DNA from: Clostridia bacterium
GTDB lineage: Bacteria > Bacillota > Clostridia > Christensenellales > UBA1242
Length of the DNA stretch: 64,000 bases
NCBI GenBank assembly: GCA_045635805.1
Contig: JAZTWI010000011.1
Span: forward strand, 3,905-67,904
Direction: 5' to 3'
Shown: positions 6,499 to 46,587 of the stretch, in pieces
Layout: every line of letters starts with the position of its first letter
How positions within the stretch are numbered: the first letter of the stretch is position 1
Made by a program: the position numbers and the translations under genes
The notes under the pieces: generated by a model
Databases searched by the model: none
Told to the model about the DNA's origin: nothing
Seen by the model: only the letters and a program-made list of their open reading frames with translations

Positions 6499-8085
6499 TT
6501 AGTGAAATCTAGAGTATTTAGCCCTAATCTTTGCAATGTTTCTAACTTCTACCACTCTTTCTAGACTCTTAATCTTGATAACTTTTCTCTTCTCTGTCAT
6601 TACTATATCTAGTGGGACATTTTTCTCTCTCACTTTCATCTCGATAGGCTCTTCACTCTCTTGCAAACCTTCTTTCTTGATTTCTTTTAGAGTTTGTTTG
6701 ATTTCGTCACCCACTACTTCTGCTACTTCCCACTCATCTTCGTAGTCTAGCATTGTCTTCTCTTCTTCTATATGTTCTTCTATCCTTAAAAGCCATTTTT
6801 TCTCTTTGATAATTTTACCATACGACAAGATTTTGATTACCGATTCTAATGCAATCAAGCCAAATACAATATACATACTATAAGGAATTATTCTAGACAA
6901 GAGATACAGCAAGATATAGTATACAGCCACACCCGACTCCCATACTAGCCCGTGCTCTGCATATCTTTCGCTCTGACCTATAATATATGTACACATTGTC
7001 CAAGCAACCCATCTAATAAGCGATAGAACTAGGTATAAAAGCATTGGTATAAATGATGTTGCCTGAAGTTCTGGGTTAAGACCCAATCTAACAGGATAAT
7101 AAAGAAGCAAACTAATAATAGCATAACCCAGCCAAATCACAAAGACTCCCCATCTGCAATATATTGCCTGATGATATGCTTCTCTTCTGTCTTTTTCTCC
7201 AATGCTTCTACATATCTTAATCGCAACAACATTGACATAGGCAAAGAATACACCGTTAAGAATATCTAGCACGTTCTCAAAATAGCAGTATTGGTTATAT
7301 AGTATTGTATTACTCTTTAGTATAAATAGTGATAGGAATATATAACCTATCTCAAAGACAATCTCACTACCGGCTCTGGCGATAATTGTTTTAAATTCAC
7401 TTTTGCCTAATTTAATATGCTCGGGTTTAAGAATATTGATAGAGTATTTTTTATTTTTAAGTAGGGCTAAATATGCAAATACTACCGACACTACACCTGC
7501 TGCAATATATACTATAGATATGAGTCTAAGCATAAGAACTGATGCTACAACTAGTATTAAGAAACCTAGAATTGTAAGGAACGACTTGATAGCAGTAATA
7601 ATCATCTGCCAACCAAATAATCCTAATTTTTTGAGTATATCTGCTATATATTGTGCGATAGCAGATATAAAGAACGATATGAGCATTAGATAATAAAAAA
7701 GTAAATCCACTTCAAAATCTAGTGCCAGCCACGACTTAAGCACGAAGGTTGGAAACGCACAAAGAATAAGTGTAAATACTAGATTTACAACGAGTGAAAA
7801 AGCAAACCCAATTTTAATATATTTTCTATATTTCTCTGGGTCTGCAATATTAAGATTGGCAAACATTCCAAAGCCTTCACTACAGCCAAAACTAATCATC
7901 TCACCAATGTAACTTAGGGTGAGAATAGCATTGAAATATGTTAGTTCGTTTAGTTTCAGTCTATTGGCAATGATTCCACTGACAATTAAATAAATACCCA
8001 CTACTAGGTATTTAATAATTAGCCATTTAGATTCTTTGAAATTGGCAATAAATTCTTTCCAGAATTTCTTTTTGAGTAATATCAT
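6499..8085 (-). CDS. Polytopic membrane protein, MATE/MOP-like (tentative), with a charged C-terminal cytoplasmic extension
   Basis: About 12 or more hydrophobic helices followed by a roughly 110-aa Glu/Lys-rich tail. The family assignment rests only on topology and loose pattern resemblance. Confidence 0.45.
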   Translation of the reverse strand: MILLKKKFWKEFIANFKESKWLIIKYLVVGIYLIVSGIIANRLKLNELTYFNAILTLSYIGEMISFGCSEGFGMFANLNIADPEKYRKYIKIGFAFSLVVNLVFTLILCAFPTFVLKSWLALDFEVDLLFYYLMLISFFISAIAQYIADILKKLGLFGWQMIITAIKSFLTILGFLILVVASVLMLRLISIVYIAAGVVSVVFAYLALLKNKKYSINILKPEHIKLGKSEFKTIIARAGSEIVFEIGYIFLSLFILKSNTILYNQYCYFENVLDILNGVFFAYVNVVAIKICRSIGEKDRREAYHQAIYCRWGVFVIWLGYAIISLLLYYPVRLGLNPELQATSFIPMLLYLVLSLIRWVAWTMCTYIIGQSERYAEHGLVWESGVAVYYILLYLLSRIIPYSMYIVFGLIALESVIKILSYGKIIKEKKWLLRIEEHIEEEKTMLDYEDEWEVAEVVGDEIKQTLKEIKKEGLQESEEPIEMKVREKNVPLDIVMTEKRKVIKIKSLERVVEVRNIAKIRAKYSRFH

Positions 8086-10175: not shown

Positions 10176-10207
10176 AAAAAACTCTATCATTTCTGGTAGA
10201 GTTTTTA
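10176..10207. terminator. Bidirectional terminator ending both degV and the fibre locus
   Basis: aaaaaACTCTATCAtttcTGGTAGAGTttttt. Confidence 0.65.
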
Positions 10208-10214
10208 TTTATCG

Positions 10215-12674
10215 TTATTTATCTGTCACCGTCATTGTATATATAGCAGCAACGATATTCTGATTATCTTTCTTATCGTAAACATACTCGGCTTTTACTA
10301 AGTCAAAAGTGATATTAATTTCAGTATGCGAAACTAGACTGTCAAAGAGTTCTCTAATCCTAGTCATATAATTAATATGAGCGTGAACGTCTAGCACATC
10401 GTGATTTACATACAAATCATATGTTCCCCTAAGTGTTCCACTAGATAGTGTATTTACGAGTTTCTGCACTTCACTGTCTTCGTCGATTAAGAAATTAAGT
10501 GTGAAATTATGGATAATACCTGTATCTCCTGCTTCATTATACTTAACAGCATTTAGCGAGTAAGAAATAAAGATATATAGTTCTTCACAAATTGCGTTCT
10601 TTGTTTCTTTTAGGAAAGGAAGCATGTTTTCTTTTAATTTACTGTAGTATACATAGCCACTACTAGAGAGAGCGATGTCTTCTAGTGGGTTATATATTGT
10701 GCCTGTGTCAGTCTCGTATCTCTCTATTAAATAATCTAGGTCAACGATTACTTCCATAGATTTTTGACTATTGTCGTACATATAATTAAAGAGTGTTACA
10801 AATTCTTCATCGCTATCTATTAGATAGTCGTGAGTTTCACTATTGTATGTGAATTTACGCTCATTATAATATCCGTACATTTCACCTGCTGGTAGATACA
10901 TAAATTCTTCTCTGCCTTCAAAGTCAGCGTGAGAGCCTTCTATCATATCATCGTCTATTAGGAAGAATCTATGAGATAGTATTTCATTGGTGCTTGAACT
11001 AAATATCTCTGTCCAAGTAATATCTACTATATAGTACTTAGCAGGAGTTGTGTCAGTTGTGTCTCTGTCAAGTAAAACTTTATTCCAAGCGTGACCACCT
11101 TCTTCGCCACCATCACTAGCAATACCAACTATTCTGATACACTCTATGTCTAACATATTACACATTAGACTAAATGCCTTAGAGAAACCATCACACACAG
11201 CAACGCCTTTATCAAATACACCTTCTAAGTAGTAACAAGGGAACTTGGTAGGAATATCGTCGGTATTAGAGTATGTTGCATAGTCATATACTGTATTTAC
11301 ACATATCCAATCAAATATGGATAGAGTTTTTTCAAAGTCTGTCATAGTAGGAGAGATGATATCTCCTAGTACTAATTTTGCTTCGTTATAGATTCTATAT
11401 GCCCTACTCTCAGTACTTGCAAATGTAGGTGTCACCCCATTTTCAACTGCCCAATACAATTCTTCGGTAGTCTTTACAGGAGTGCTTAGGTATTTTGAGT
11501 CACTAGCAAATTTCTGCTGAGATAAATACTCACTATCACTAGCATAGCCTTCCCTTAGACTATCAAATTCAAAACTCTCGTAATATGGTACTGAGTACTC
11601 CTGAGCATAGTTATCGGCTGTAGTATTATTCATCTCTAGGTCACACTCATATATTCCCATATAAGTGACCTTGATATTATATGTTCTGTCTTTGGTTGAA
11701 ATAGCAGAAGCGAAGTATCTATCTTGTCCCACAATATTTCCTGCCATATATGCGCTCGTCTCACTAAATGCACCGAAGCCGTATTGGAAGATAAGCAGGT
11801 CTAGACACTCTTCAAAGTCTCCACCATCAAAGATAGTAGCCATATCATATATCTCACTAGATATCTTGATATTGAAGTCTTCGTCTCTATATATAAATGA
11901 GTGATAAATTATATTCTGTAATTCATCTAATGTATTAATGTAATGGTCGTAGATTTTACCATCAAATATATAGATATTGTCAGTATACCCAGCATAATTG
12001 TCAGGATTGTAATATTTGGTAGAGCTAGCAACAAACTTATCTTCGCCCACTTTTACAAGAAGTCTTAGGGCTGAAATTTCGTTTCTTAGACCAAATGTAG
12101 CAGAACTAAGATGGAAATTATATTTACCATTTACATACGAAATCTTGTCGTCAATATTATATTCTTTATAGCCTAGAGTATTACTATAAATACCTAGTAC
12201 ATAACCATCTACATTCTCAACTTTATCAAAGGTAACAATGGAATTATTGATAGCAAGTGTAGTGGAATTTTTGTATTCGCCTTCAACTATCGTATGTGAA
12301 TTTTTTATATCAAAATCTAATACTTCGGTATTATTATAATTAGCAGTTTGCTCAACGCCCTTGGTTGTAAAAGATAGTCCTTGGGTCACTGCTTTTACCT
12401 TGAAATTATACTGTCCAACCGTGTCTAAGTGTTTACCAAATTCATATATACATTCAGTTGTATCTGCAGTGTCTACGAGTTTATCATTACAGTATATCTC
12501 ATACGATACTGCATTTCTAACAGCTCTCCACGAGAACGCCTTGCTATTAGGATATATAACTAAGTTATAGTCGGTAGACTCCGTTGTGCACGAAAAAGTA
12601 CAGCCTGTAAATATAGGACAGGCTATACATAATAGTATTGCTATGACAAATAAATATTTTCTTAGTTTACTCAT
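10215..12674 (-). CDS. Transglutaminase-like (Cys-His-Asp core) surface lipoprotein with an N-terminal Fn3-like module
   Basis: The lipobox is LLCIACPIFTGC. The transglutaminase core is VAVCDGFSKAF...GGHAWNKV...VDITW. The N-terminal FSWRAVRNAVSYEIY shares the module signature of the giant protein. It is the last gene of the operon, with a 24-nt gap to the previous gene. Confidence 0.75.
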   Translation of the reverse strand: MSKLRKYLFVIAILLCIACPIFTGCTFSCTTESTDYNLVIYPNSKAFSWRAVRNAVSYEIYCNDKLVDTADTTECIYEFGKHLDTVGQYNFKVKAVTQGLSFTTKGVEQTANYNNTEVLDFDIKNSHTIVEGEYKNSTTLAINNSIVTFDKVENVDGYVLGIYSNTLGYKEYNIDDKISYVNGKYNFHLSSATFGLRNEISALRLLVKVGEDKFVASSTKYYNPDNYAGYTDNIYIFDGKIYDHYINTLDELQNIIYHSFIYRDEDFNIKISSEIYDMATIFDGGDFEECLDLLIFQYGFGAFSETSAYMAGNIVGQDRYFASAISTKDRTYNIKVTYMGIYECDLEMNNTTADNYAQEYSVPYYESFEFDSLREGYASDSEYLSQQKFASDSKYLSTPVKTTEELYWAVENGVTPTFASTESRAYRIYNEAKLVLGDIISPTMTDFEKTLSIFDWICVNTVYDYATYSNTDDIPTKFPCYYLEGVFDKGVAVCDGFSKAFSLMCNMLDIECIRIVGIASDGGEEGGHAWNKVLLDRDTTDTTPAKYYIVDITWTEIFSSSTNEILSHRFFLIDDDMIEGSHADFEGREEFMYLPAGEMYGYYNERKFTYNSETHDYLIDSDEEFVTLFNYMYDNSQKSMEVIVDLDYLIERYETDTGTIYNPLEDIALSSSGYVYYSKLKENMLPFLKETKNAICEELYIFISYSLNAVKYNEAGDTGIIHNFTLNFLIDEDSEVQKLVNTLSSGTLRGTYDLYVNHDVLDVHAHINYMTRIRELFDSLVSHTEINITFDLVKAEYVYDKKDNQNIVAAIYTMTVTDK

Positions 12675-12698
12675 CCTTACCCATAAATAATTATATGA

Positions 12699-13736
12699 TT
12701 AATTAGTTATATCTAGCACCCAATGTTTAGGAGCTGTTGGCCATACCGAACCATTAATGATATTCTCTGGTACTGCTTCGATTGACTCTACTATTACTTG
12801 GATTTGACCATACTTGCCACCATCTTCGCAGAAAATATTGTCTCCCACAAATTCTAGTTCGCTAAAGAGTTCTATTCTTTGTTGAAATCTAACTATGTCT
12901 TTATAGTAAAAATATCCGTCATCGAATTGCACACCATTTACTATTAGTGATTCATCATCGTGGTTATACCTATACCACATCTCTCCAATATTTGGAGATA
13001 CTATTTCATTTCTTTCTTCGTAGTCAAGAATAACTACAATTTTAAATCTAATATAAATATTTTTTGCAGCATCTGACTGCGATGTTGATGGGTCACCCCT
13101 ATAGTCTTCGGAGTTTCTAGCGTAAGCCCTTAGTGGCAATACATCTCCTGGGGAAATCTCTCTAAGAATCTCTTGACCGGTCTCTGTGACCACACTTAAG
13201 GCAGACTTATTCTCAATCTTCATACTGACTCTGATATCGTATGATTCTTCTTGTCCACCACCAGCATTGCCTAGGAAGAAGATAAAGAATGCAATGAGTG
13301 CTACAACTATAAGCACAAGGATTATAGCAATGATACTTTTGTTTCTCTTACTGCTATCGCCTTTATCTCTCTTAACCTTGGTTCTTGCCTTATCTACAGG
13401 CGCATCATCTAGACCAGAAGCTCTTTTTCTCAGTCTCTCGAGCGCTGCCTGTTCTCTTTCTTTGTCTGTTGGTACATACTCTACTTCGTCTACAATCTCT
13501 GGTCTATTGTTTCTATCGTAAGCAGACCTTGGTTTTGTAACATCTATAGGGTTATTATAATTAGGTGTAGAAGGTCTAGGTGTGGAAGGTGTACTAGGAC
13601 TAGGTGCGCCTGGTCTAGGCGGTCCACTAGAAGAACTAGGGTTTTGCGTACTAGAACTGCTAGTATATGGTGTACTAGGTCTATATGGTGTGCCAGGATT
13701 ACTTGGTGTACCATTAGGATTTCTATTATCTTCCAT
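12699..13736 (-). CDS. Single-pass membrane protein: Pro/Ser-rich cytoplasmic N-terminus, one TM helix and a TasA-like ectodomain
   Basis: Residues 1 to about 60 are low-complexity (PSNPGTPYRPSTPYTSSSS...PSTPSTPRPSTP). The TM helix is IIAIILVLIVVALIAFFIFFL. The ectodomain shares IYIRFKIVV, GYFYYKD and a C-terminal IQVIVESIEAV strand with the three upstream subunits. Confidence 0.6.
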   Translation of the reverse strand: MEDNRNPNGTPSNPGTPYRPSTPYTSSSSTQNPSSSSGPPRPGAPSPSTPSTPRPSTPNYNNPIDVTKPRSAYDRNNRPEIVDEVEYVPTDKEREQAALERLRKRASGLDDAPVDKARTKVKRDKGDSSKRNKSIIAIILVLIVVALIAFFIFFLGNAGGGQEESYDIRVSMKIENKSALSVVTETGQEILREISPGDVLPLRAYARNSEDYRGDPSTSQSDAAKNIYIRFKIVVILDYEERNEIVSPNIGEMWYRYNHDDESLIVNGVQFDDGYFYYKDIVRFQQRIELFSELEFVGDNIFCEDGGKYGQIQVIVESIEAVPENIINGSVWPTAPKHWVLDITN

Positions 13737-13801
13737 GCTCTCTACCTCCTTTTTATCTATTCACCCTGCACTTTGGGTGTTGTTTTCAAATTAATATATT
13801 A

Positions 13802-14632
13802 CTATGCTGTAGTTGGGATATCTTCTATATCGCCTAGTTCAAAGTTCCACCAAGGGCCATAGCCTTCGTACTCAAGTGGGTCTGGAACGTTCTGAACCTG
13901 TATTGCTTCTACTACATAATTAATGTGTATCTTACAGTTTGCTTGTGCATTTGTAATATTTATTTTACTAAGAGCAATATATCCGTCTATAAATACGAAT
14001 TGTTCCATATCATATGCAACTCTAGCATATGTTTTACCTGAAATGTCTGTGGTCTTTAATACAAACCAAATATCGGTTGGCTTGTCTGCTTCATCGCCTT
14101 CAAATTCGGCATATTTATTGAAGTCTACACTCTGCCAAACACTAGCATCTGGTGCGTCTTCGTACTCAATCTGTCCCTTATCTGCAAGGTCCTGAAGTTC
14201 ACTAACTTCGCCTGTGTAGATATTCTCATAGAATACCTGTAATTTAACTCTAACATATGCTGGAGATGATGTAGTTACTCCATCACCTATCTGCATACCT
14301 AGTCGCATTTTGATTTTATCTCCAGGATAAACCCTGGTATTGAATTCTTCTAGAATATCGGTCTTGGTTGTATGTTCTAATACTACTTGACCATTTTTGT
14401 CTAGTACAAAATTACCATCGGCATCTCTACTCTCAGTAAATTCTGTTATGTAGATATTAACAGGATTAGAAAGGATAATATCGGCTGTATCTGACCTGGT
14501 TCTAATATACCAAGCAGCAGTAGACGACACAACAAGCATTACCACTATTAAAATGGCTAGTGCTAATATTATCATATTCTGCGTTTGAATTTTCCTTTTG
14601 TACTCTTGGGCACTCAATGTTTTCTTTGCCAT
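13802..14632 (-). CDS. TasA/BsaA-like secreted matrix/fibre subunit 3 with a SipW-type signal peptide
   Basis: The N-terminal TM helix ends in STAAWYIRTRSD (compare the TasA-type ...AYFSD). It also has AYVRVKLQV and a C-terminal NYVVEAIQVQN strand. Confidence 0.6.
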   Translation of the reverse strand: MAKKTLSAQEYKRKIQTQNMIILALAILIVVMLVVSSTAAWYIRTRSDTADIILSNPVNIYITEFTESRDADGNFVLDKNGQVVLEHTTKTDILEEFNTRVYPGDKIKMRLGMQIGDGVTTSSPAYVRVKLQVFYENIYTGEVSELQDLADKGQIEYEDAPDASVWQSVDFNKYAEFEGDEADKPTDIWFVLKTTDISGKTYARVAYDMEQFVFIDGYIALSKINITNAQANCKIHINYVVEAIQVQNVPDPLEYEGYGPWWNFELGDIEDIPTTA

Positions 14633-14666
14633 ATTTCCTTCCTTTCTATTCTCTAGTTAATTTCTA

Positions 14667-15341
14667 TTAGTCATCTGGATTATATATTTTACTCTCATCT
14701 TGTAAAACAAAGTCTTTAAATATCTTTGGGCTGGTTATCCAGTCACCTTTTGCATCGGCAGAAGCCCCGTATTGTCTCTGGATTGTCTCAAAGTATAATG
14801 TGATTTGACAAGGCTCTCCTGCTTTTTCATTATATAATGTATTGTCTACATAGTACCCAGCATTAAACTGAGTACCGATATCGTCTACACAGCCTAGATA
14901 ATAATAAAAGTCGTCGCCCTCATTATAAACCCACTTTTTCTCTTCTCCTGATGAATAAGTTGCGGCTGTTGTAAATTTGTTGCTATCAAAATATAATGTT
15001 ATCTCTGGTCTATTAGTCGTATATCTAACTCTAACATACGCACCATCGATATTGTGTTTTTCGCTAGTTTTAATATAAGTACCTATGTCCTGACCGTCTT
15101 TGTCTACTAGATAGGTAGTATCTGGAGCAAGGACTAGGTTTCGCAAGTTAAAATTGGTTGTAATATCTAAATCAAGGGTACCGATAATTGATACTGATGG
15201 GTCTGGGTTTGACGTAGTGGAAGTATCTTCTAACCAAGAAGTAGTTACTCTCACCACACCCCACACAAAAGCCACTAGTAGTAGGAGAACTACTACTATA
15301 TAAGTAAAGTAATTAAACTTTGACTTTTGCCCTAGTTTCAT
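14667..15341 (-). CDS. TasA/BsaA-like secreted matrix/fibre subunit 2 with a SipW-type signal peptide
   Basis: The signal region ends in TTSWLEDTSTTS, the closest match to the SipW-dependent signal consensus. It also has GAYVRVRY and a C-terminal YFETIQRQ strand. Confidence 0.65.
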   Translation of the reverse strand: MKLGQKSKFNYFTYIVVVLLLLVAFVWGVVRVTTSWLEDTSTTSNPDPSVSIIGTLDLDITTNFNLRNLVLAPDTTYLVDKDGQDIGTYIKTSEKHNIDGAYVRVRYTTNRPEITLYFDSNKFTTAATYSSGEEKKWVYNEGDDFYYYLGCVDDIGTQFNAGYYVDNTLYNEKAGEPCQITLYFETIQRQYGASADAKGDWITSPKIFKDFVLQDESKIYNPDD

Positions 15342-15357
15342 AAGTATTTCCTTCTTA

Positions 15358-16221
15358 TTACATCCAGCCTAACCAGCCGGTATTTTCTGCGCCTGACACG
15401 TCACAAGGAATAGTTGAACCAAATGGAAATGCAGGAACAGGAATAAGATTTGTTTCACCTGATGGGTACAAATCTCTCATAAAATCTTCGTCTGGCATAG
15501 TAAATGTGGTATATGCCCTACTCTCACCATCTAAGGTAACTTTACTTAAATTAGATGCTGAGTTTTCATAAATTTTCTTATAAATATTACCAGGGTGTGC
15601 TACAGCGTCTACTGTAACAGACACTAGTATTTCGGTATTTTCGTAGCCTGTAGGTACTGTGATTTGTGAAATAATAGGTATCTCTCTATCGCTAGAAGTC
15701 TCGCCATTTAGAGTATATGGCTCTAATTTTTCACTTAAATACATATAACCACTAGCTACTTGATTATTCTGTGGTAATGCCTGATACCAGCCTGTGGTAT
15801 TCATAGCAATCATTGGTGCACTAGATGGCATCACTTGTGGGATGCCAAGGAGACAAACAATATTATTATTGCCATCTACTATATACACTCTAATAGTTGC
15901 TCTAATGAGCGCATCTACTGTCCCTGTATTTCTAATAGTAAGGCTAAGGTTTCTACTCGTTCCGCCTGTTGGAATTGAGTACGGAGATGTGCACTCCCAT
16001 GTTGTACCATTTTGGTGCTCGGTGGTATGAGTAACATTAGTGCCATTTGCATAGATTTCTACTGCTACTGTACCTATCTCTAAGCCTTCGCTATCTCTAG
16101 TATAATTTCTCTTTAACCACGCGAGAACAGAGCCAACTAGAACACAAGTCACTAGTACAACAGTCACTAGTAGTACTATAAAAGAAACTCTGTGTCTATG
16201 CTCTATTTTCTTTGTGTCCAT
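15358..16221 (-). CDS. TasA/BsaA-like secreted matrix/fibre subunit 1 with a SipW-type signal peptide
   Basis: The start was set at the ATG at 16221, which is 4 nt after AAGGAGAG. The ORF-track start would overlap sipW. The signal region ends in SVLAWLKRNYTRDSE, and the protein contains LSLTIRNTGTVDALIRATIRVY. Confidence 0.6.
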   Translation of the reverse strand: MDTKKIEHRHRVSFIVLLVTVVLVTCVLVGSVLAWLKRNYTRDSEGLEIGTVAVEIYANGTNVTHTTEHQNGTTWECTSPYSIPTGGTSRNLSLTIRNTGTVDALIRATIRVYIVDGNNNIVCLLGIPQVMPSSAPMIAMNTTGWYQALPQNNQVASGYMYLSEKLEPYTLNGETSSDREIPIISQITVPTGYENTEILVSVTVDAVAHPGNIYKKIYENSASNLSKVTLDGESRAYTTFTMPDEDFMRDLYPSGETNLIPVPAFPFGSTIPCDVSGAENTGWLGWM

Positions 16222-16235
16222 AGTTCTCTCCTTTT

Positions 16236-16832
16236 TTATTCTTCGTCGTCGTTTTCGTAGCACTCGATATCGTCTGGATTAAGATTATCTTTTACCCAGA
16301 AAATCACCCAAATAAATGCTACTAATATGATGCTATATATAATAAGCATCATTGTATTAGCCTTGATATACATTACAACATCGCCTAGCCAAGTATAGCA
16401 GTGTTCTTCGTATACCTTACCGACTAATTCTTGTTCACTAAGGATTCCGTCAGGGGTATTACTGTTGTCACCCTGTGTGTACCAGAATCCATTGTCCCAG
16501 GCTTCTCTACTAAAGCCTTCTTCTCCTGGGAGTGGCAAAATTTTACCATTAAAATCTCTCTTACCTTCGATTCTGTGGGTTAAGTAAATTCCACCTTTAT
16601 TCATTGTAACAATATCGCCTAGTTCTAGTTTTTCGTATTCTATAGGTGTAGACATAATTAGACTGCCTACAGGTAGTTTCGGCTCCATAGAACCAGATGA
16701 AACTATCATAAATTTGTAGCCTAGAATTGTGGCTAGTATTATAGATATTAGTAATGAAAAACCAAAGGCTCTAAATAATTTAGACCAGATGTCTTTGAAA
16801 AAACCTTGCTTTTCTAATCTGTAAAATCTCAT
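16236..16832 (-). CDS. sipW: Signal peptidase I, archaeal/ER (SipW) type
   Basis: It has an N-terminal TM helix, the catalytic Ser motif VSSGSMEPKLPVGSLIM, the His motif YLTHRIEG and a C-terminal TM helix plus acidic tail, as in B. subtilis SipW. Confidence 0.8.
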   Translation of the reverse strand: MRFYRLEKQGFFKDIWSKLFRAFGFSLLISIILATILGYKFMIVSSGSMEPKLPVGSLIMSTPIEYEKLELGDIVTMNKGGIYLTHRIEGKRDFNGKILPLPGEEGFSREAWDNGFWYTQGDNSNTPDGILSEQELVGKVYEEHCYTWLGDVVMYIKANTMMLIIYSIILVAFIWVIFWVKDNLNPDDIECYENDDEE

Positions 16833-16932
16833 TGTTTTGTCCTTGAATTTTTTAAATTGTAATGATATTTATTACCCTAGGCAGAACTAGGTAATCCTAG
16901 TCCCACCTATTGTAATAATTTAAGTTAATATC

Positions 16933-19900
16933 TTAGCCTAGGCTAGGATATTTAGTTGTTGTGATATAACCAAGAGTACCCATTTCAGCCTTTAACTCGT
17001 CTACATTGTAAACTTGCTCTCCTGCTGGGCTTAGGCCTAAGGTTACAGGTCTATCAACAGTATCATCTACTAGATAGTAACAATCAGTAGCTGTAGCCTG
17101 TTCTGAGTACATAATGCCATAAGCGTATACTTGAGCACTACCAGAAGTAGCAGCATATGAGTATCTAACAACCACATAACACTCTGTTACATTTACGTTA
17201 GTAGCGGAAGTGATTGTACATTGTCCTAGTATACCACCCACACTGATTGACTTGGTACCATTTGAACCATAATCAACTATGATTAATGCAGTACTATAAC
17301 ACTTATTAATAGTTACGTTAGAAGCGATTACTTCGGCAGCGATACCACCAAGTAGACCACCCCTGAATACAGTGCTAGTACTTGTGTAACTTCTGTCAGT
17401 AACAGTGATTTGAACAGTCTCGTCTAGGTAACAGTTAGAAACTGTTGATTTCTCTTCGATAGTACCTACGATACCACCGATTTGGTTAGATTTAATAGCA
17501 CCAGAAATTCTCACATCTTCTGTATCATATTCACCAATTAAGTAACAATTACTGATTACTGCATTTTCACCAGACATCTTTCTAGCGATACCACCTACAA
17601 CAGAAGATTTAGCAGATGAGCCATTTTCTAGTGCTGTGATATTAGCAGAAACATATGAATTAGTAATTGTACCCATATTATCTACTACTAAGCCACCTAC
17701 GAATACACCATTATTTGTGCTAGATGGAGTAATAGAAATATTAGAACTCTGAGCATTACTTGCATCATCTGTATCGTTATAGAATGTAACGATATTTACA
17801 TTATCAAGTGTGCCATAGTTATTGATAGCAATACCAGCTACTTGATACTCAAGTGCAGTACTAGATGCTGAGTAATTAATCTGGAAGTCTACGTCCTTGA
17901 TAGTTCCCCTATTATTTAGGATAAATGATAGATATGTAGCTCTAGCATCAGCATAAGGGTTTGCTACAAGTCCGTGGATAGCGAAGTTCTTATCATTTGC
18001 AGCGTCTCTACCTTTGATAGAACCTGTGAAGTTCTCAATGATAGTCCAATCGCTCTGTACATAGACATCACTAACTAGTTTGTAGTGACTCTCTGTGTAA
18101 TTTCTAATGTTATTAAGTTCTGTATCATTATGTATAGTATATGGAATATATGGGCTACCATTACCACTGAAGAATAATGAGAATGCACCATTTACATTGT
18201 ATACATATGTTGCAGACTTATATGAATTAGAAGAAGTCTCTGTAGAATCGTATGCTGTAGCAGTAATAGAGAACTTATAATTACTTGCTACAGATGTTAA
18301 TTTGTAACTAGTTGGAGTGTAAACTTGTGTTCCAACCTTATATGAACTAACAAGGATAGTATCTTTAACATATAAGATATAGTTTGCACCAGCAGTTGCT
18401 TGATAGTAAACAACTACTCTATCTTTGATTTCTTCGTAGTATAGATAATCTGCATCGTATTCAGCATTGTCACCTGCTGCTGCAAAGTTAGGTGAAGCAC
18501 TCATTACTTGACCTACTTTATTAGCAGATTTTACCCAACTTTCTTTGTCTTCTGGAGAAACGTTACCAACAGTATATTCTGCAGTAAGTATGATATTGTA
18601 ACCGGTCTTAACATCGTCTACATTTGTCATACCCCAAGATAGAATACCTGTCTTCTCATCGTAATGTCCATTAGTTGGAGAAGATGGAATAGATATAACT
18701 AATCTATCACTATAACTACTATTTAGTAGTGCTCTATATGTCTCTACACTACCTAGCTCGATAGTCTTAGATGGGTCGCTAGGGTCTGGCATAGACTCTG
18801 TTACCCAAGAACCAGACTCATCATAAGTACTAGTCTTTAAGTGACCAATTGCTTGTGCAAAGGCAAATACTTGTAAGCCTTCGTTAGTGTCATTTACGTT
18901 GATATTTTGAAGTAGTGCATTTAGTTTAAATCTAATCTCACTGCCTTCGGTCTCGAAATATTCGTTATTTGCCCAAGGTTGACTATATACTGTAATAGTG
19001 TCTTGAACATTAGGATTTACAATCTCAATAGTTGCTGTGCCATCGCCTTCTTTGATGATTGTATATGTGTGGATTGTCTCACCCACAAAGAATTTAAGTT
19101 TGTATGCTTTAGCGCTGTCGTTCCAAGTCCAATAGATTCTATTTTCTTCGTTTGCTGTAGCATTAATAACGTTTTTGAGTGTTGGTGCAGGAATTTTAGA
19201 TACATAGTAAGTCTTAAGCTCACTAGCTAGGTAGAATTGTTTACCTGCGTTAGCCATATCATCACTAGAACCCTGAGTTCCTTTATACATAATAGTAATA
19301 GTATGCGCACCTGATGGGAACAATGTCTCATTATCACTCGCATCATATGATGCTTGGTTAGCACTAGTTACTTCTGTGAAGTATGGATAAGATAGAACTG
19401 AATTATCAGCAAGTGATTTCTCTACCCCGTCGATTGTGAGTACACTAGCTGTAACTGATTGTCCAGCAAGAGCATCACCTGCAGCGCCCCACTCAAATAC
19501 ACCATTTGTTACCCTTGGTACAGGAGCTGCAATCTTTGTAACTGATGTAGATGTAGAGAAACTACTATTAATGTATCCACTGTCTGCTACTGCAATAGCC
19601 TTAATCTTCATACTGATAGTACCAAGTAGACTATCTAGAATATCAATCTGTGGATAGTTATTAGATGTAGCGTCTAAATCATCTTTGTTGCTACCCTGAT
19701 ATGAAATAGCGTAGTTATTAACTGTGCCATCATATTGTGTTAATTCGTTCCAAGAGATTTGACCCCTATCATTAACAACAATCTTAGTAGGTATAGCAAG
19801 TCTAAAGTATCTACCTGTAATCATTGACTTGATTTCGGTTGCATCGGTTGGATTGTAGAACTGAGTATTTGTTGCTGTAGATACGTTATTTGAATTAAAG

Positions 19901-32100: not shown

Positions 32101-34077
32101 ATGAAAAAATGGACTACAGCCTTACTGCTAACAGGCGTAATGGCAATGACTACCCCTATCTTTACAGGGGATATTAAATTTAATAATTCAAATGTAAATT
32201 ATGCAGTGTCTACCACCCTTGGCAGACAGAGTTTTGACACGCCTTATGTAAATACTCTTAGGGGTGACGCAGACGAAGTAAAACTTAGCAACCCGGCTCT
32301 AGAGAATAGACTAAGAACCCTACTCTCTATACCTACCGACCCACTCAAGGTAAATAGCATTATTAGTAATTCTAAATACTATAACGAGAGCGACCCTACT
32401 AATGCAGAGAGAACTTGTCTAGACCTAAGTGGTACAGGAATTAGAGATTTAACCGAACTATGTCAATTCACTTGGCCGGAAACTTTGGTTGCGATTAACC
32501 TAGCAGGAAACGGACTTACAAATACCGACTTTACAAACCTTCAAACATTTGTAGGCTATACTGCAGGGGCTAAGGTTACAATCGGCACAGGAACTACTGC
32601 TAAAGAACTCACAGTTGCTAGTAATCTAAGTGGCATTATTAAGAGTATTAACTTATGTTTCAACGATATGGACCTTACAGCGCTTAGCACAAGCACTCTA
32701 AATAATGAGAAATATATCTATGGCGTACAGGGTATATCCCACCTAGATGGCACTAAATTAATACTTAATAGTGAATTAGATAAAACTAAATATTACTTTA
32801 GACAAAACGACTTAAACTTCATCTCTCCTTTGCTTAAGAGAAATGGCGTATCACTTAGTTATACAATTGGAGCTTTAAAAGGCTTTACAGATGACGGAAT
32901 ACTAGGAGAGATAGAATCAACTATCGGTGGGGTAACATCTTCTACTAGTGGTTACTATCACGGATGGACGCAAACCGAGAGTTTCTCTGCATTTACAGTA
33001 TCTACCAATAAAGATATCGTTGTTGAGAGAAAGACTCCATTTGGTTTGCCTAGTGACACTTTAATCAATGTTAGCCCAGAAATTGGTGCAAGATACGAAG
33101 TAATTGGCAACCCGGAAACCAAGACTATTGGTAATAAGACATTAAATATTAGAGTAACAGCAAGTAACGGACTATCTAGGGTAGTACAACTAAGTTATTA
33201 TGTAAAAGACACCGTCGCACCAATTCTAAATCTAGTTGGAGCAAAGACAATATATTGGAGTAAAAATAAAGCCTTTGACTTTAATAAATACACTTGCGCT
33301 GGTACAGACAGTGGAGATAAGATAAACGAAAGCGATATCTCTATGACTACCAACTTAGACGTTACTAAACTTACAGATAAAACACCATACTATATCAAGT
33401 ACAATTACACCGACGCCGCGGGAAACAAAGCAGAAGAAGTAATTAGATATGTATACATACAAGAACAAGCACTAGATACAATATATGTTAGGTGCAATAC
33501 CAAAGATACCTTTACAGACACAGATATTACACTCGAAGTTAAGCCTGATGATAATATTCCTATGAAAGACTACGAAGGCTTCTCGTTTACCTATAATTGG
33601 TATGTAAATGGAGTACTAGAGCATACAACCACAGGCGACTTCAATGCTAGAAGCACACAGAGTTTCATCTTTGATACAGTGGGCTTAAAAGAAGTAAAAG
33701 TCGTGCTTACAGCAAAGAAAGGAACACAAGTAATCGAAGTAGACAGCGAAACTCTATACCTAGATATTACAATGGGTATGAGCAATACAAAACTTATAAT
33801 CATTGCTTGTTCTGTAGCAATCATACTATGTATAGCATTCTTCTCAATCAGAGTAATCATAAAGAGCAGAAGAGCAAAAGCAGGTATTACAAAGAAATCA
33901 TCTAAACCTAGCAAGAAAGCTAAACCAGATGATGCAAAGAAACAACAGATAACTATTATTAGTGGCGTCAACCCAAATAACCCACAAGGTTTCACTGGTG
34001 CTGGCACCGGTGGTGGTAATGAAATGAATAGATTACCTGAAACCAATCAAGACAATGACCAGATGGGAAGACAATAA
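32101..34077 (+). CDS. Surface protein with leucine-rich repeats, Ig-like domains, a C-terminal TM anchor and a Lys-rich cytoplasmic tail
   Basis: It has a signal peptide, then the LRR stretch LDLSGTGIRDLTELCQFTWPETLVAINLAGNGLTNTDFTNL. An Ig-like segment (VKDTVAPILNLVG) follows, then the TM helix LIIIACSVAIILCIAFFSIRVII and KSRRAKAGITKKSSKPSKKAKP. Confidence 0.65.
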   Translation: MKKWTTALLLTGVMAMTTPIFTGDIKFNNSNVNYAVSTTLGRQSFDTPYVNTLRGDADEVKLSNPALENRLRTLLSIPTDPLKVNSIISNSKYYNESDPTNAERTCLDLSGTGIRDLTELCQFTWPETLVAINLAGNGLTNTDFTNLQTFVGYTAGAKVTIGTGTTAKELTVASNLSGIIKSINLCFNDMDLTALSTSTLNNEKYIYGVQGISHLDGTKLILNSELDKTKYYFRQNDLNFISPLLKRNGVSLSYTIGALKGFTDDGILGEIESTIGGVTSSTSGYYHGWTQTESFSAFTVSTNKDIVVERKTPFGLPSDTLINVSPEIGARYEVIGNPETKTIGNKTLNIRVTASNGLSRVVQLSYYVKDTVAPILNLVGAKTIYWSKNKAFDFNKYTCAGTDSGDKINESDISMTTNLDVTKLTDKTPYYIKYNYTDAAGNKAEEVIRYVYIQEQALDTIYVRCNTKDTFTDTDITLEVKPDDNIPMKDYEGFSFTYNWYVNGVLEHTTTGDFNARSTQSFIFDTVGLKEVKVVLTAKKGTQVIEVDSETLYLDITMGMSNTKLIIIACSVAIILCIAFFSIRVIIKSRRAKAGITKKSSKPSKKAKPDDAKKQQITIISGVNPNNPQGFTGAGTGGGNEMNRLPETNQDNDQMGRQ

Positions 34078-46512: not shown

Positions 46513-46587
46513 TGGTACTCCCAAGGAGACTCGAACTCCTGATTCCGCCGTGAGAGGGCGACGTCTTAACCGCTTGACCATGGGAGC
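46513..46587 (-). tRNA. tRNA-Glu (anticodon CUC)
   Basis: The minus strand reads GCTCCCATGGTCAAGCGGTTAAGACGTCGCCCTCTCACGGCGGAATCAGGAGTTCGAGTCTCCTTGGGAGTACCA. It has a Glu-type D arm (GGTCAAGCGGTTAAGAC), the anticodon loop CT-CTC-AC, the T arm AGGAG-TTCGAGT-CTCCT and an encoded CCA. Confidence 0.9.

Follow-up and report, generated by a model that had tools for sequence, protein, structure and literature searches.

Layout and conservation of a seven-gene locus

We analysed a stretch of 64,000 nt from a Clostridia bacterium (contig JAZTWI010000011.1, positions 3,905-67,904), referred to here as the window; coordinates follow window numbering unless a related locus is named. Between positions 10215 and 27369, the window holds seven open reading frames (ORFs), all on the minus strand and transcribed from g1 to g7 (27369..10215). 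In a preliminary description made from the letters of the sequence, these genes were proposed to form a surface-fibre locus that joins a giant adhesin with a SipW-type signal peptidase, TasA/BsaA-like subunits, and a transglutaminase. The genes and the features that border or divide them are as follows.

27370..27618, minus strand: intergenic region with sigma-70-like hexamer pairs, presumed promoter region common to g1 and a divergent gene
16933..27369, minus strand: g1 (giant), 3478 aa, ORF and translation
16864..16932, minus strand: stem-loop right after the g1 stop codon, with no U-tract behind the hairpin
16236..16832, minus strand: g2 (sipW), 198 aa, SipW-type signal peptidase I matching TIGR02228
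15358..16221, minus strand: g3, 287 aa counted from the ATG (orthologues concur), predicted secreted paralogue of the TasA/BsaA superfamily
14667..15341, minus strand: g4, 224 aa, predicted secreted paralogue of the TasA/BsaA superfamily
13802..14632, minus strand: g5, 276 aa, best-conserved TasA/BsaA-superfamily protein, candidate major fibre subunit
12699..13736, minus strand: g6, 345 aa, membrane-anchored paralogue
10215..12674, minus strand: g7, 819 aa, lipoprotein with a transglutaminase core
10177-10206, between g7 and the convergent DegV gene: bidirectional intrinsic terminator, 13-bp stem bordered by an A-run on its upstream and a T-run on its downstream side

The coordinates and spacings agree with the earlier account of seven same-strand genes separated by about 14-100 nt: in order from g1 to g7, the gaps measure 100, 14, 16, 34, 65, and 24 nt, and a purine-rich Shine-Dalgarno site precedes the start codon of all seven genes. 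The bidirectional terminator reported after the last gene was recovered as well. Upstream of g1, the minus strand carries several sigma-70-like hexamer pairs as candidate promoters, for example one at 27474..27445 with an extended TG. When the window and the region upstream of g1 were scanned against Rfam, no riboswitch or leader and a single tRNA (46516-46587) were found. Because the GC content of the locus equals that of its flanks and the neighbouring genes are housekeeping genes (DegV, RadC, rubrerythrin, seryl-tRNA synthetase (serS), and gyrA), the locus is part of the core chromosome, and an origin as a mobile element or prophage was ruled out.

A synteny scan with one genome per GTDB species identified the locus in 16 species representatives, all of them metagenome-assembled genomes (MAGs) of gut or rumen-type Christensenellales/Clostridia, and in additional metagenome contigs. 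Every related locus of sufficient length contained all seven genes in the same order. Among the loci with downstream genes listed, these genes fall into three sets, namely DegV/RadC/Trk, LysM-GH18/Ham1/epimerase, and SDR/ABC transporters. The seven-gene arrangement is thus no product of chance, as the same genes occur in the same order in three flanking contexts. The synteny that the preliminary description had named as a check of its proposal is therefore present.

More distant loci (L022-L025) were found in a metagenome scan with a four-sequence alignment. Mean identity in distant loci was highest for g5 (59%), followed by SipW (51%), g6 (47%), g4 (44%), g3 (38%), g7 (36.5%), and g1 (24-28%). 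In two of these loci, L022 and L024, the gene order is giant gene, sipW, g3-like, g4-like, g5-like, an extra anchored and an extra cleavable paralogue, g6-like, and transglutaminase; the two extra genes lie inside the cluster (L022:10774-13978; L024:10774-13971). One encodes a protein of 298 aa that combines a tail rich in Asn, Ser, and Lys with a membrane helix and a g6-like DDGYYYY motif; the product of the other is a cleavable paralogue of 257 aa whose signal, FAWFASSD, is near-canonical. In these loci, the g6 orthologue measures 463 aa and carries an additional membrane helix at the C-terminal end. That the giant gene and the transglutaminase gene continue to bracket the cluster when the number of paralogues changes is our main argument for a functional coupling.

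The signal peptidase and the four small paralogues

The identity of g2 as an ER/archaeal-type (endoplasmic reticulum/archaeal-type) SipW signal peptidase is secure at the level of sequence. It matched TIGR02228, the model of the ER/archaeal-type signal peptidase I, with 63.3 bits (cut-off 51.85), and the SGSMEP and THRI motifs noted previously are present. The catalytic Ser (SGSMEP), the His that replaces Lys (THR), and the GDN box are kept in 16 orthologues, and hydrophobic segments at residues 19-38 and 152-171 predict two membrane segments. We do not regard g2 as an orthologue or equivalog of B. subtilis SipW, because its score against the Bacillus SipW equivalog model NF046067 was 48.6 bits, far below the cut-off of 190. 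An exact look-up of the window SipW sequence returned no record.

Each of the g3, g4, and g5 products has a single hydrophobic helix, which is located at the N-terminus and terminates in [ST]-x-[AS]-W-aromatic. Of the signal ends pointed out before (AWL, SWLEDTS, and AWY..SD), all are in place: ..GSVLAWLKR in g3, ..TTSWLEDTS followed by GTLDL in g4, and ..SSTAAWYIRT in g5. Of the SipW-dependent signal to which they had been likened, the motif G-T-x-A-[YW]-F-[ST]-D is only partly kept (S-T-A-A-W-Y-I-R in g5, T-T-S-W-L-E-D in g4, and V-L-A-W-L-K-R in g3). TIGR04088, the model of this signal, matched none of the window proteins at E <= 1 but did match distant relatives. Besides the signal end, the motifs GTLDL, PGD, and a C-terminal E-A-[IT]-Q are shared with TasA. 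The most conserved stretch of g5 directly follows the signal motif (AAWYIRTxSDxADIILSNPVNIYITE) and represents the predicted mature N-terminus. In TasA, the segment at that position is the donor strand. Type IV pilin identity of g3-g5 was ruled out, as these proteins lack the G/F-x-x-x-E prepilin motif and neither PilD nor ATPase genes are present.

Residues 12-25 of g5, before and inside the signal helix, contain a conserved K-x-x-I-Q-x-Q-N-M-I-I element, and distant g5-like relatives carry [IM]-Q-[RQ]-N at the position of IQxQN. Such conservation is unusual in a signal peptide that is merely removed; the element may serve in recognition or retention, or may be the sign of a helix that is kept.

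The fourth paralogue, g6, is built differently. A Pro/Ser-rich basic cytoplasmic tail of ~130 aa is followed by one membrane helix (~130-161) and an extracellular TasA-like domain, and the A-W-aromatic cleavage motif is absent. Given this tail, the membrane helix, and the absent motif, g6 is likely the anchor of the putative fibre. Its topology, together with a profile similarity that is confined to the extracellular domain, is consistent with the earlier view of a fourth member fixed to the membrane.

The kinship of the small proteins emerged from local HHalign comparisons of profiles built on orthologues from 21 loci. The profiles of g4 and g5 aligned at 93.6% over 149 columns, those of g5 and g6 at 90.8% over 192 columns, and those of g4 and g6 at 94.5% over 64 columns. 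The alignment of g3 and g4 covered the signal region only, and g3 is the most divergent of the four. Pairwise BLAST of g3-g6 returned nothing significant. The proposal of three paralogous secreted proteins therefore finds support in profile comparisons but not in pairwise searches.

A connection to known fibre proteins was reached through intermediates. The homologues found for g4 and g5 all come from uncultured Clostridia or Christensenellales metagenome bins, and all 129 homologues of g5 are unnamed proteins of uncultured Clostridia. With the g5 profile as query, 80 of 1.84 billion representative proteins matched at E <= 1e-3, and 65 full-length distant matches were used to build a bridging alignment and profile (A3). 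Within this set, 14 proteins matched PF12389 (Peptidase_M73/camelysin; best 3.4e-10), 20 matched the SipW-dependent-type signal TIGR04088 (best 1.7e-9), nine matched TIGR04090, the BsaA family of SipW-dependent biofilm matrix proteins (best 5.8e-7), and two matched TasA. The N-termini of the distant relatives grade from the canonical ..GGTLAYFTDT through ..GTMAWFxD to the ..STAAWYIRT of the window. After removal of the signal, the g5 profile still recognised 12 bridging proteins that also match a TasA-family profile, with 13.6-51.5 bits compared to 3.3 bits for the best reversed decoy.

A3 aligned with g3 at 98.3% (194 columns), with g4 at 98.8% (185 columns), with g5 at 100%, and with the extracellular domain of g6 at 97.9% (144 columns, confined to that domain). 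Its alignment with the TasA family reached 80.1%, as compared to 0.6% for a SipW control. In L022-L025, single proteins matched several of the g3, g4, g5, g6, and TasA hidden Markov models (HMMs) simultaneously. Together, transitive homology and profile comparisons place g3-g6 as divergent members in a broad TasA/BsaA superfamily and outside the curated TasA/CalY family. The description of these proteins as TasA/BsaA-like subunits is hence supported via intermediates and profiles, while the direct HMM checks with PF12389 and TIGR04088 failed.

We also generated single-chain AlphaFold2 models of g4 and g5 and compared them with 350,542 PDB chains using Foldseek. The g5 model (predicted local distance difference test score, pLDDT, of 85) consists of an N-terminal helix and a sandwich of ~10 strands. 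Its first-ranking match was the TasA fibre 8aur (prob 0.96, E = 2.7e-3), a weak match with a TM value of 0.28-0.32, and second came 7pnb, the thread filament of Sulfolobus. Donor-strand polymers occupy both of these ranks. The g4 model (pLDDT 84) was beta-rich and had no significant match, with the TasA fibre in seventh place (E = 0.21). The fold predicted in the preliminary description is thus the best, if weak, match of one model and lacks a significant counterpart in the other, so that the structural evidence for a TasA-like fold is only suggestive.

The bracketing genes and the spacer after g1

The g1 product has a single N-terminal hydrophobic segment ending in A-F-I-N-A-C and no C-terminal anchor or sorting signal. 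In the candidate lipobox I-N-A-C, the Asn at -2 is atypical compared to [LVI][ASTVI][GAS]C, and lipoprotein status is no more than plausible. The body is long, beta-rich, and Thr/Ser-rich, and its C-terminal region is GLUG-like. When the protein was searched whole and in tiles against Pfam and NCBIfam, nothing scored above threshold. The Fn3 and GLUG labels previously attached to it do not hold by Pfam standards, since fn3 (PF00041) reached E = 0.035 and 14.8 bits (gathering score 25) and Glug (PF07581) 16.4 bits (cut-off 20.5). The C-terminal 428 aa matched PDB 3n6z, a GLUG-containing 'putative IgA1 protease', with E = 1.5e-4, and the fn3-like motif W..V..A..Y.V occurs four times (0.06 expected). 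Self-BLAST detected no internal sequence repeats.

Orthologues of g1 are collinear and fast-evolving (24-64% identity); in the distant loci, identity falls to 24-28% where g5 keeps 53-65%. These comparisons cover the part of the gene inside the fetched loci (~20 kb), which end within the giant gene, with the N-termini of its orthologues lying outside. It is fair to describe g1 as a giant, beta-rich protein of the cell surface whose distal end is GLUG-like. Of the earlier term 'lipoprotein adhesin' for the 3478-aa product, the surface protein stands, the lipobox is atypical, and 'adhesin' is an inference. The fast divergence, measured as percent identity, would be consistent with diversifying pressure if the protein is exposed at the surface.

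At the other end of the locus, the identity of g7 as a lipoprotein with a transglutaminase core is secure, in line with the preliminary description. PF01841 (Transglut_core), matched with 41 bits (cut-off 23), was the only Pfam family found at E <= 1. The lipobox ..IFTGC (F-T-G-C) is canonical with a conserved G-C, and the central transglutaminase core contains a triad of Cys494 (VCDGF), His (GGHAWNK), and Asp (VDITW). Across 18 sequences, the lipobox Cys and the triad residues show a conservation of at least 95%, and g7 is probably an active enzyme. Its N-terminal module is fn3-like, with the W..V..A..Y.V motif at residue 49. The MAG6410 model of transglutaminase-related lipoproteins aligned with the core region only and far below its cut-off, and a search against PDB sequences returned no solved homologue. 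As far as the residues can tell, cross-linking and proteolysis are equally compatible with this enzyme.

The 100-nt spacer between g1 and sipW contains the stem-loop listed above. The spacer has a minimum free energy of -29.8 kcal/mol (z = -6.8), and none of 200 shuffled sequences was equally stable. A hairpin at the same position was obtained in 14 of 14 related spacers that were folded (L001-L022 loci), with unrelated sequences and mostly without a U-tract. Across loci, the spacer between the giant gene and sipW measures 99-256 nt. The earlier statement that there is no convincing internal terminator is thus correct for canonical U-tract terminators only, and a very stable stem-loop does follow g1. 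It looks like a leaky terminator or a 3'-stabiliser. Alternatively, it may be an attenuator, RNA-stabilising element, or processing site that sets the expression ratio of the giant protein to the fibre genes. Since a strong hairpin follows g1 at every locus, g1 and the six downstream genes may be transcribed as two units.

In 12 related loci, a conserved micro-ORF of 14-18 codons is located between the giant gene and sipW.

L003, 7713-7763: micro-ORF
L004, 7750-7794: micro-ORF
L005, 7759-7815: micro-ORF
L008, 7316-7372: micro-ORF
L011, 7741-7785: micro-ORF
L012, 7657-7701: micro-ORF
L013, 7814-7858: micro-ORF
L014, 7813-7857: micro-ORF
L016, 7809-7853: micro-ORF
L017, 7913-7960: micro-ORF
L018, 7822-7866: micro-ORF
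L020, 7680-7730: micro-ORF

The encoded peptide is hydrophobic (MW[LI]x[VI]xx[IV]LYYCFK*), and a GGAG ribosome-binding site accompanies most copies. Each of these loci has the motif a single time, with no further occurrence in the ~20 kb fetched. The window lacks it, as do the nearest relatives of the window (L001/L002/L006, L007, and L010) and L022/L024. The micro-ORF could be an eighth gene for a small membrane protein or a leader peptide.

A putative membrane-rooted fibre and its alternatives

With moderate confidence, we interpret the locus as encoding a SipW-dependent, membrane-rooted heteropolymeric fibre of the TasA/BsaA type, with g5 as shaft, g3 and g4 as minor subunits, g6 as anchor, and g7 and g1 as conserved partners. 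We infer the following scheme of polymerisation, SipW cleavage, subunit roles, and functions of g1 and g7. The g3, g4, and g5 proteins would be exported by Sec and held in the membrane via their long signal peptides ending in [ST]-x-[AS]-W-aromatic. Polymerisation would take place at the membrane by donor-strand exchange of the highly conserved mature N-termini (in g5, the segment W41-F65), after which SipW (g2) would cut each subunit free, with the cut predicted at the invariant Trp or one residue ahead of it. The shaft is assigned to g5 because it is the best-conserved protein of the locus, as expected of a self-polymerising subunit, and g3 and g4 would act as minor, tip, or adaptor subunits. 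Being uncleavable, g6 would serve as a stop-and-anchor subunit that ends growth and roots the fibre in the membrane. Finally, the most likely targets of g7 would be g1 and/or the fibre subunits, which it would modify on the outer side of the membrane by isopeptide cross-linking or cleavage. We consider it improbable that this extends to a dedicated membrane transglutaminase that locks a donor-strand TasA-type heteropolymer and/or grafts g1 onto it, which would amount to sortase-independent covalent fibres with an uncleavable paralogue as root.

Several observations weigh against the fibre interpretation. At E <= 1, g3-g6 matched neither PF12389 (Peptidase_M73), NF046066, TIGR04088, nor any TasA or BsaA model in Pfam and NCBIfam, and the g5 profile had zero matches among PDB sequences. 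Direct HHalign comparisons of g3-g6 with a 112-sequence Bacillus TasA/CalY profile were weak (best g4, 19.5%, P = 0.0012), with a g4 alignment that spans the signal end and the GTLDL..NF..NL stretch, mirroring the TasA N-terminus. To this come the weak Foldseek match of g5 to the TasA fibre and the non-significant one of g4. The n- and h-regions of the g5 signal (IQxQN) are unusually conserved, and the helix might stay on the protein instead of being cut off. The link of g7 to the fibre genes is one of gene order. Lastly, g1 has its own N-terminal anchor, and a hairpin of conserved position divides it from the six downstream genes, so that g1 has no obvious need of a fibre for its display.

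The last two points lead to an arrangement that is possible but rather unlikely in our view, in which g1 is transcribed separately, with the hairpin as its terminator or attenuator, and sipW-g3-g4-g5-g6-g7 is a separate fibre operon whose products do not physically interact with g1. Shared regulation or genomic inertia within one clade would then have kept the genes adjacent. The strong stem-loop after the giant gene at every locus, the spacers of 99-256 nt, and the 12 loci with a separate micro-ORF bearing its own ribosome-binding site are consistent with such a division, as are the much faster evolution of g1 (24-64% identity) and its own anchor. However, the adjacency has survived differing downstream neighbours and the paralogue expansion in L022/L024, and the six genes were seen without the giant gene at no locus. 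Moreover, most of the hairpins lack U-tracts, which makes read-through likely. A different challenge concerns the subunits themselves. The weak fold matches to the TasA fibre and the conserved hydrophobic and n-regions of g5 would also be expected if the small proteins were beta-sandwich proteins tethered to the membrane, uncleaved or monomeric, and served as chaperones, export helpers, or a cell-envelope scaffold of the giant protein, with SipW processing only some of them. Indeed, BsaB, a TasA-family paralogue of C. perfringens, dimerises and does not form long oligomers (PMC11580942). We judge a locus without a polymer to be less likely, and indeed quite improbable, since the families reached by transitive homology (TasA, CalY, BsaA, and archaeal threads) are fibre formers, the strongest conservation of g5 falls on the predicted donor segment, and a dedicated SipW is kept at every locus.

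The role of g7 allows a further alternative, modelled on LapG and LapA, in which g7 is a cysteine protease that cleaves g1 near its anchor or trims subunits and thereby controls the release or maturation of surface structures, while the fibre is a separate, co-regulated matrix component. The intact Cys-His-Asp triad fits proteolysis equally well, and LapA/LapG offer an established case of a giant adhesin that is paired with a transglutaminase-like cysteine protease (PMC3032545). Both g1 and g7 are predicted at the outer membrane face, and both carry fn3-like W..V..A..Y.V modules, which would fit a shared partner or mutual recognition. On the other hand, g7 matches PF01841, with no LapG-type BTLCP among its Pfam matches, and the locus contains no LapD-like or cyclic di-GMP (c-di-GMP) component and no riboswitch. 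We regard this alternative as unlikely.

The combination of SipW with TasA-like subunits is already known from B. subtilis and C. perfringens. In B. subtilis, tapA-sipW-tasA gives rise to biofilm fibres in which TasA polymerises by donor-strand exchange (PMC9674648, PMC10151520). The locus in the window resembles this system in the dedicated SipW-type peptidase encoded beside its substrates, in the signal end T-x-A-aromatic, in the GTLDL, PGD, and E-A-T-Q-like motifs, and in the best fold match of g5. In contrast to B. subtilis, it shows no direct PF12389 match and no TapA homologue, has four divergent paralogues, including an integral membrane protein, where B. subtilis has one major subunit, and contains the giant surface protein and the transglutaminase-like lipoprotein as conserved partners.

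In C. perfringens sipW-bsaA-bsaB-bsaC, spontaneous N-E-K isopeptide bonds lock BsaA, and a vWA protein is the third partner, with secretion aided by type IV pili (PMC7395162; PMC11580942). According to the model for BsaA, growth proceeds at the base from signal-anchored monomers that are then cleaved by SipW, and the oligomers are membrane-anchored by unidentified means (PMC11580942). Similar to the locus studied here, the system is clostridial and sipW is followed by several TasA-like paralogues; furthermore, its oligomers are membrane-anchored, and distant relatives of g5 match the BsaA model TIGR04090. Unlike in C. perfringens, there is no vWA, pilin, or sortase gene nearby, and the locus has in their place an anchored paralogue of its own, an enzyme with a transglutaminase core, and a protein of 3478 aa. 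A 2025 preprint reports that TasA/BsaA genes often occur in multi-paralogue operons beside fibronectin-domain and LPxTG proteins.

Archaeal filaments (Sulfolobus threads, PMC9715654; Pyrobaculum bundling pili, PMC9245690) share with the locus the ER/archaeal-type peptidase and donor-strand complementation, which is the principle proposed for the window proteins, and 7pnb is the second-best fold match of g5. They differ in belonging to another domain of life, with no detectable sequence relation, and a transglutaminase or giant-protein partner is absent from the literature found. Pseudomonas LapA/LapG likewise combines a giant repetitive adhesin with a transglutaminase-like Cys-His-Asp envelope enzyme (PMC3032545), but LapG belongs to the BTLCP family, acts in a diderm periplasm, and is controlled by LapD and c-di-GMP, none of which was found here.

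The division of labour proposed for g3-g6 also has an analogy outside these families. Sortase-assembled Gram-positive pili consist of minor or tip subunits, a major shaft, and a basal subunit that stops growth and anchors the pilus. The tip, shaft, and base logic and possibly enzyme-made covalent links would be comparable, whereas the locus has no sortase, LPXTG, or pilin motif, its anchor is a membrane helix instead of peptidoglycan attachment, and the fold family is unrelated. Literature searches combining TasA/SipW with transglutaminase and TasA with Christensenellales yielded nothing relevant, and within the limits of full-text search we found no description of a dedicated membrane-anchored paralogue, a conserved transglutaminase-core lipoprotein, or a giant non-LPXTG surface protein as fixed partners. 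The preliminary description had been aware of no such coupling to a giant protein and a transglutaminase-like protein either.

Fibres of the TasA/BsaA type are increasingly recognised as a matrix and pilus principle that is widespread in bacteria and archaea, and the locus bears on the questions of how such fibres are attached to the cell and how the order of subunits in heteropolymers is set. With one peptidase, three predicted cleavable subunits, and one uncleavable anchored paralogue, it represents a clean, conserved test case. The anchored paralogue could explain the membrane anchoring of the fibre, and g7 could supply the covalent locking that is autocatalytic in BsaA and archaeal threads. 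The carriers are uncultured Christensenellales-like Clostridia of the gut, for whose ecology adhesion and aggregation are plausibly important.

Other large ORFs are present around the locus. The gene divergent from g1 (27619-29496, plus strand) encodes a protein of about 600 aa (625-aa ORF) with one N-terminal membrane helix (MSKKKKIIISSICIGIILIGIILSVVLV), a large extracellular part, and no Pfam match. Three more were without a Pfam match at E <= 0.001:

6499-8085, minus strand: ORF of 528 aa, multi-pass membrane protein with a charged C-terminal tail
32101-34077, plus strand: ORF of 658 aa
34515-36266, minus strand: ORF of 583 aa

In the related locus L001, a similarly sized gene (500 aa) occupies the position of the ORF at 6499-8085.

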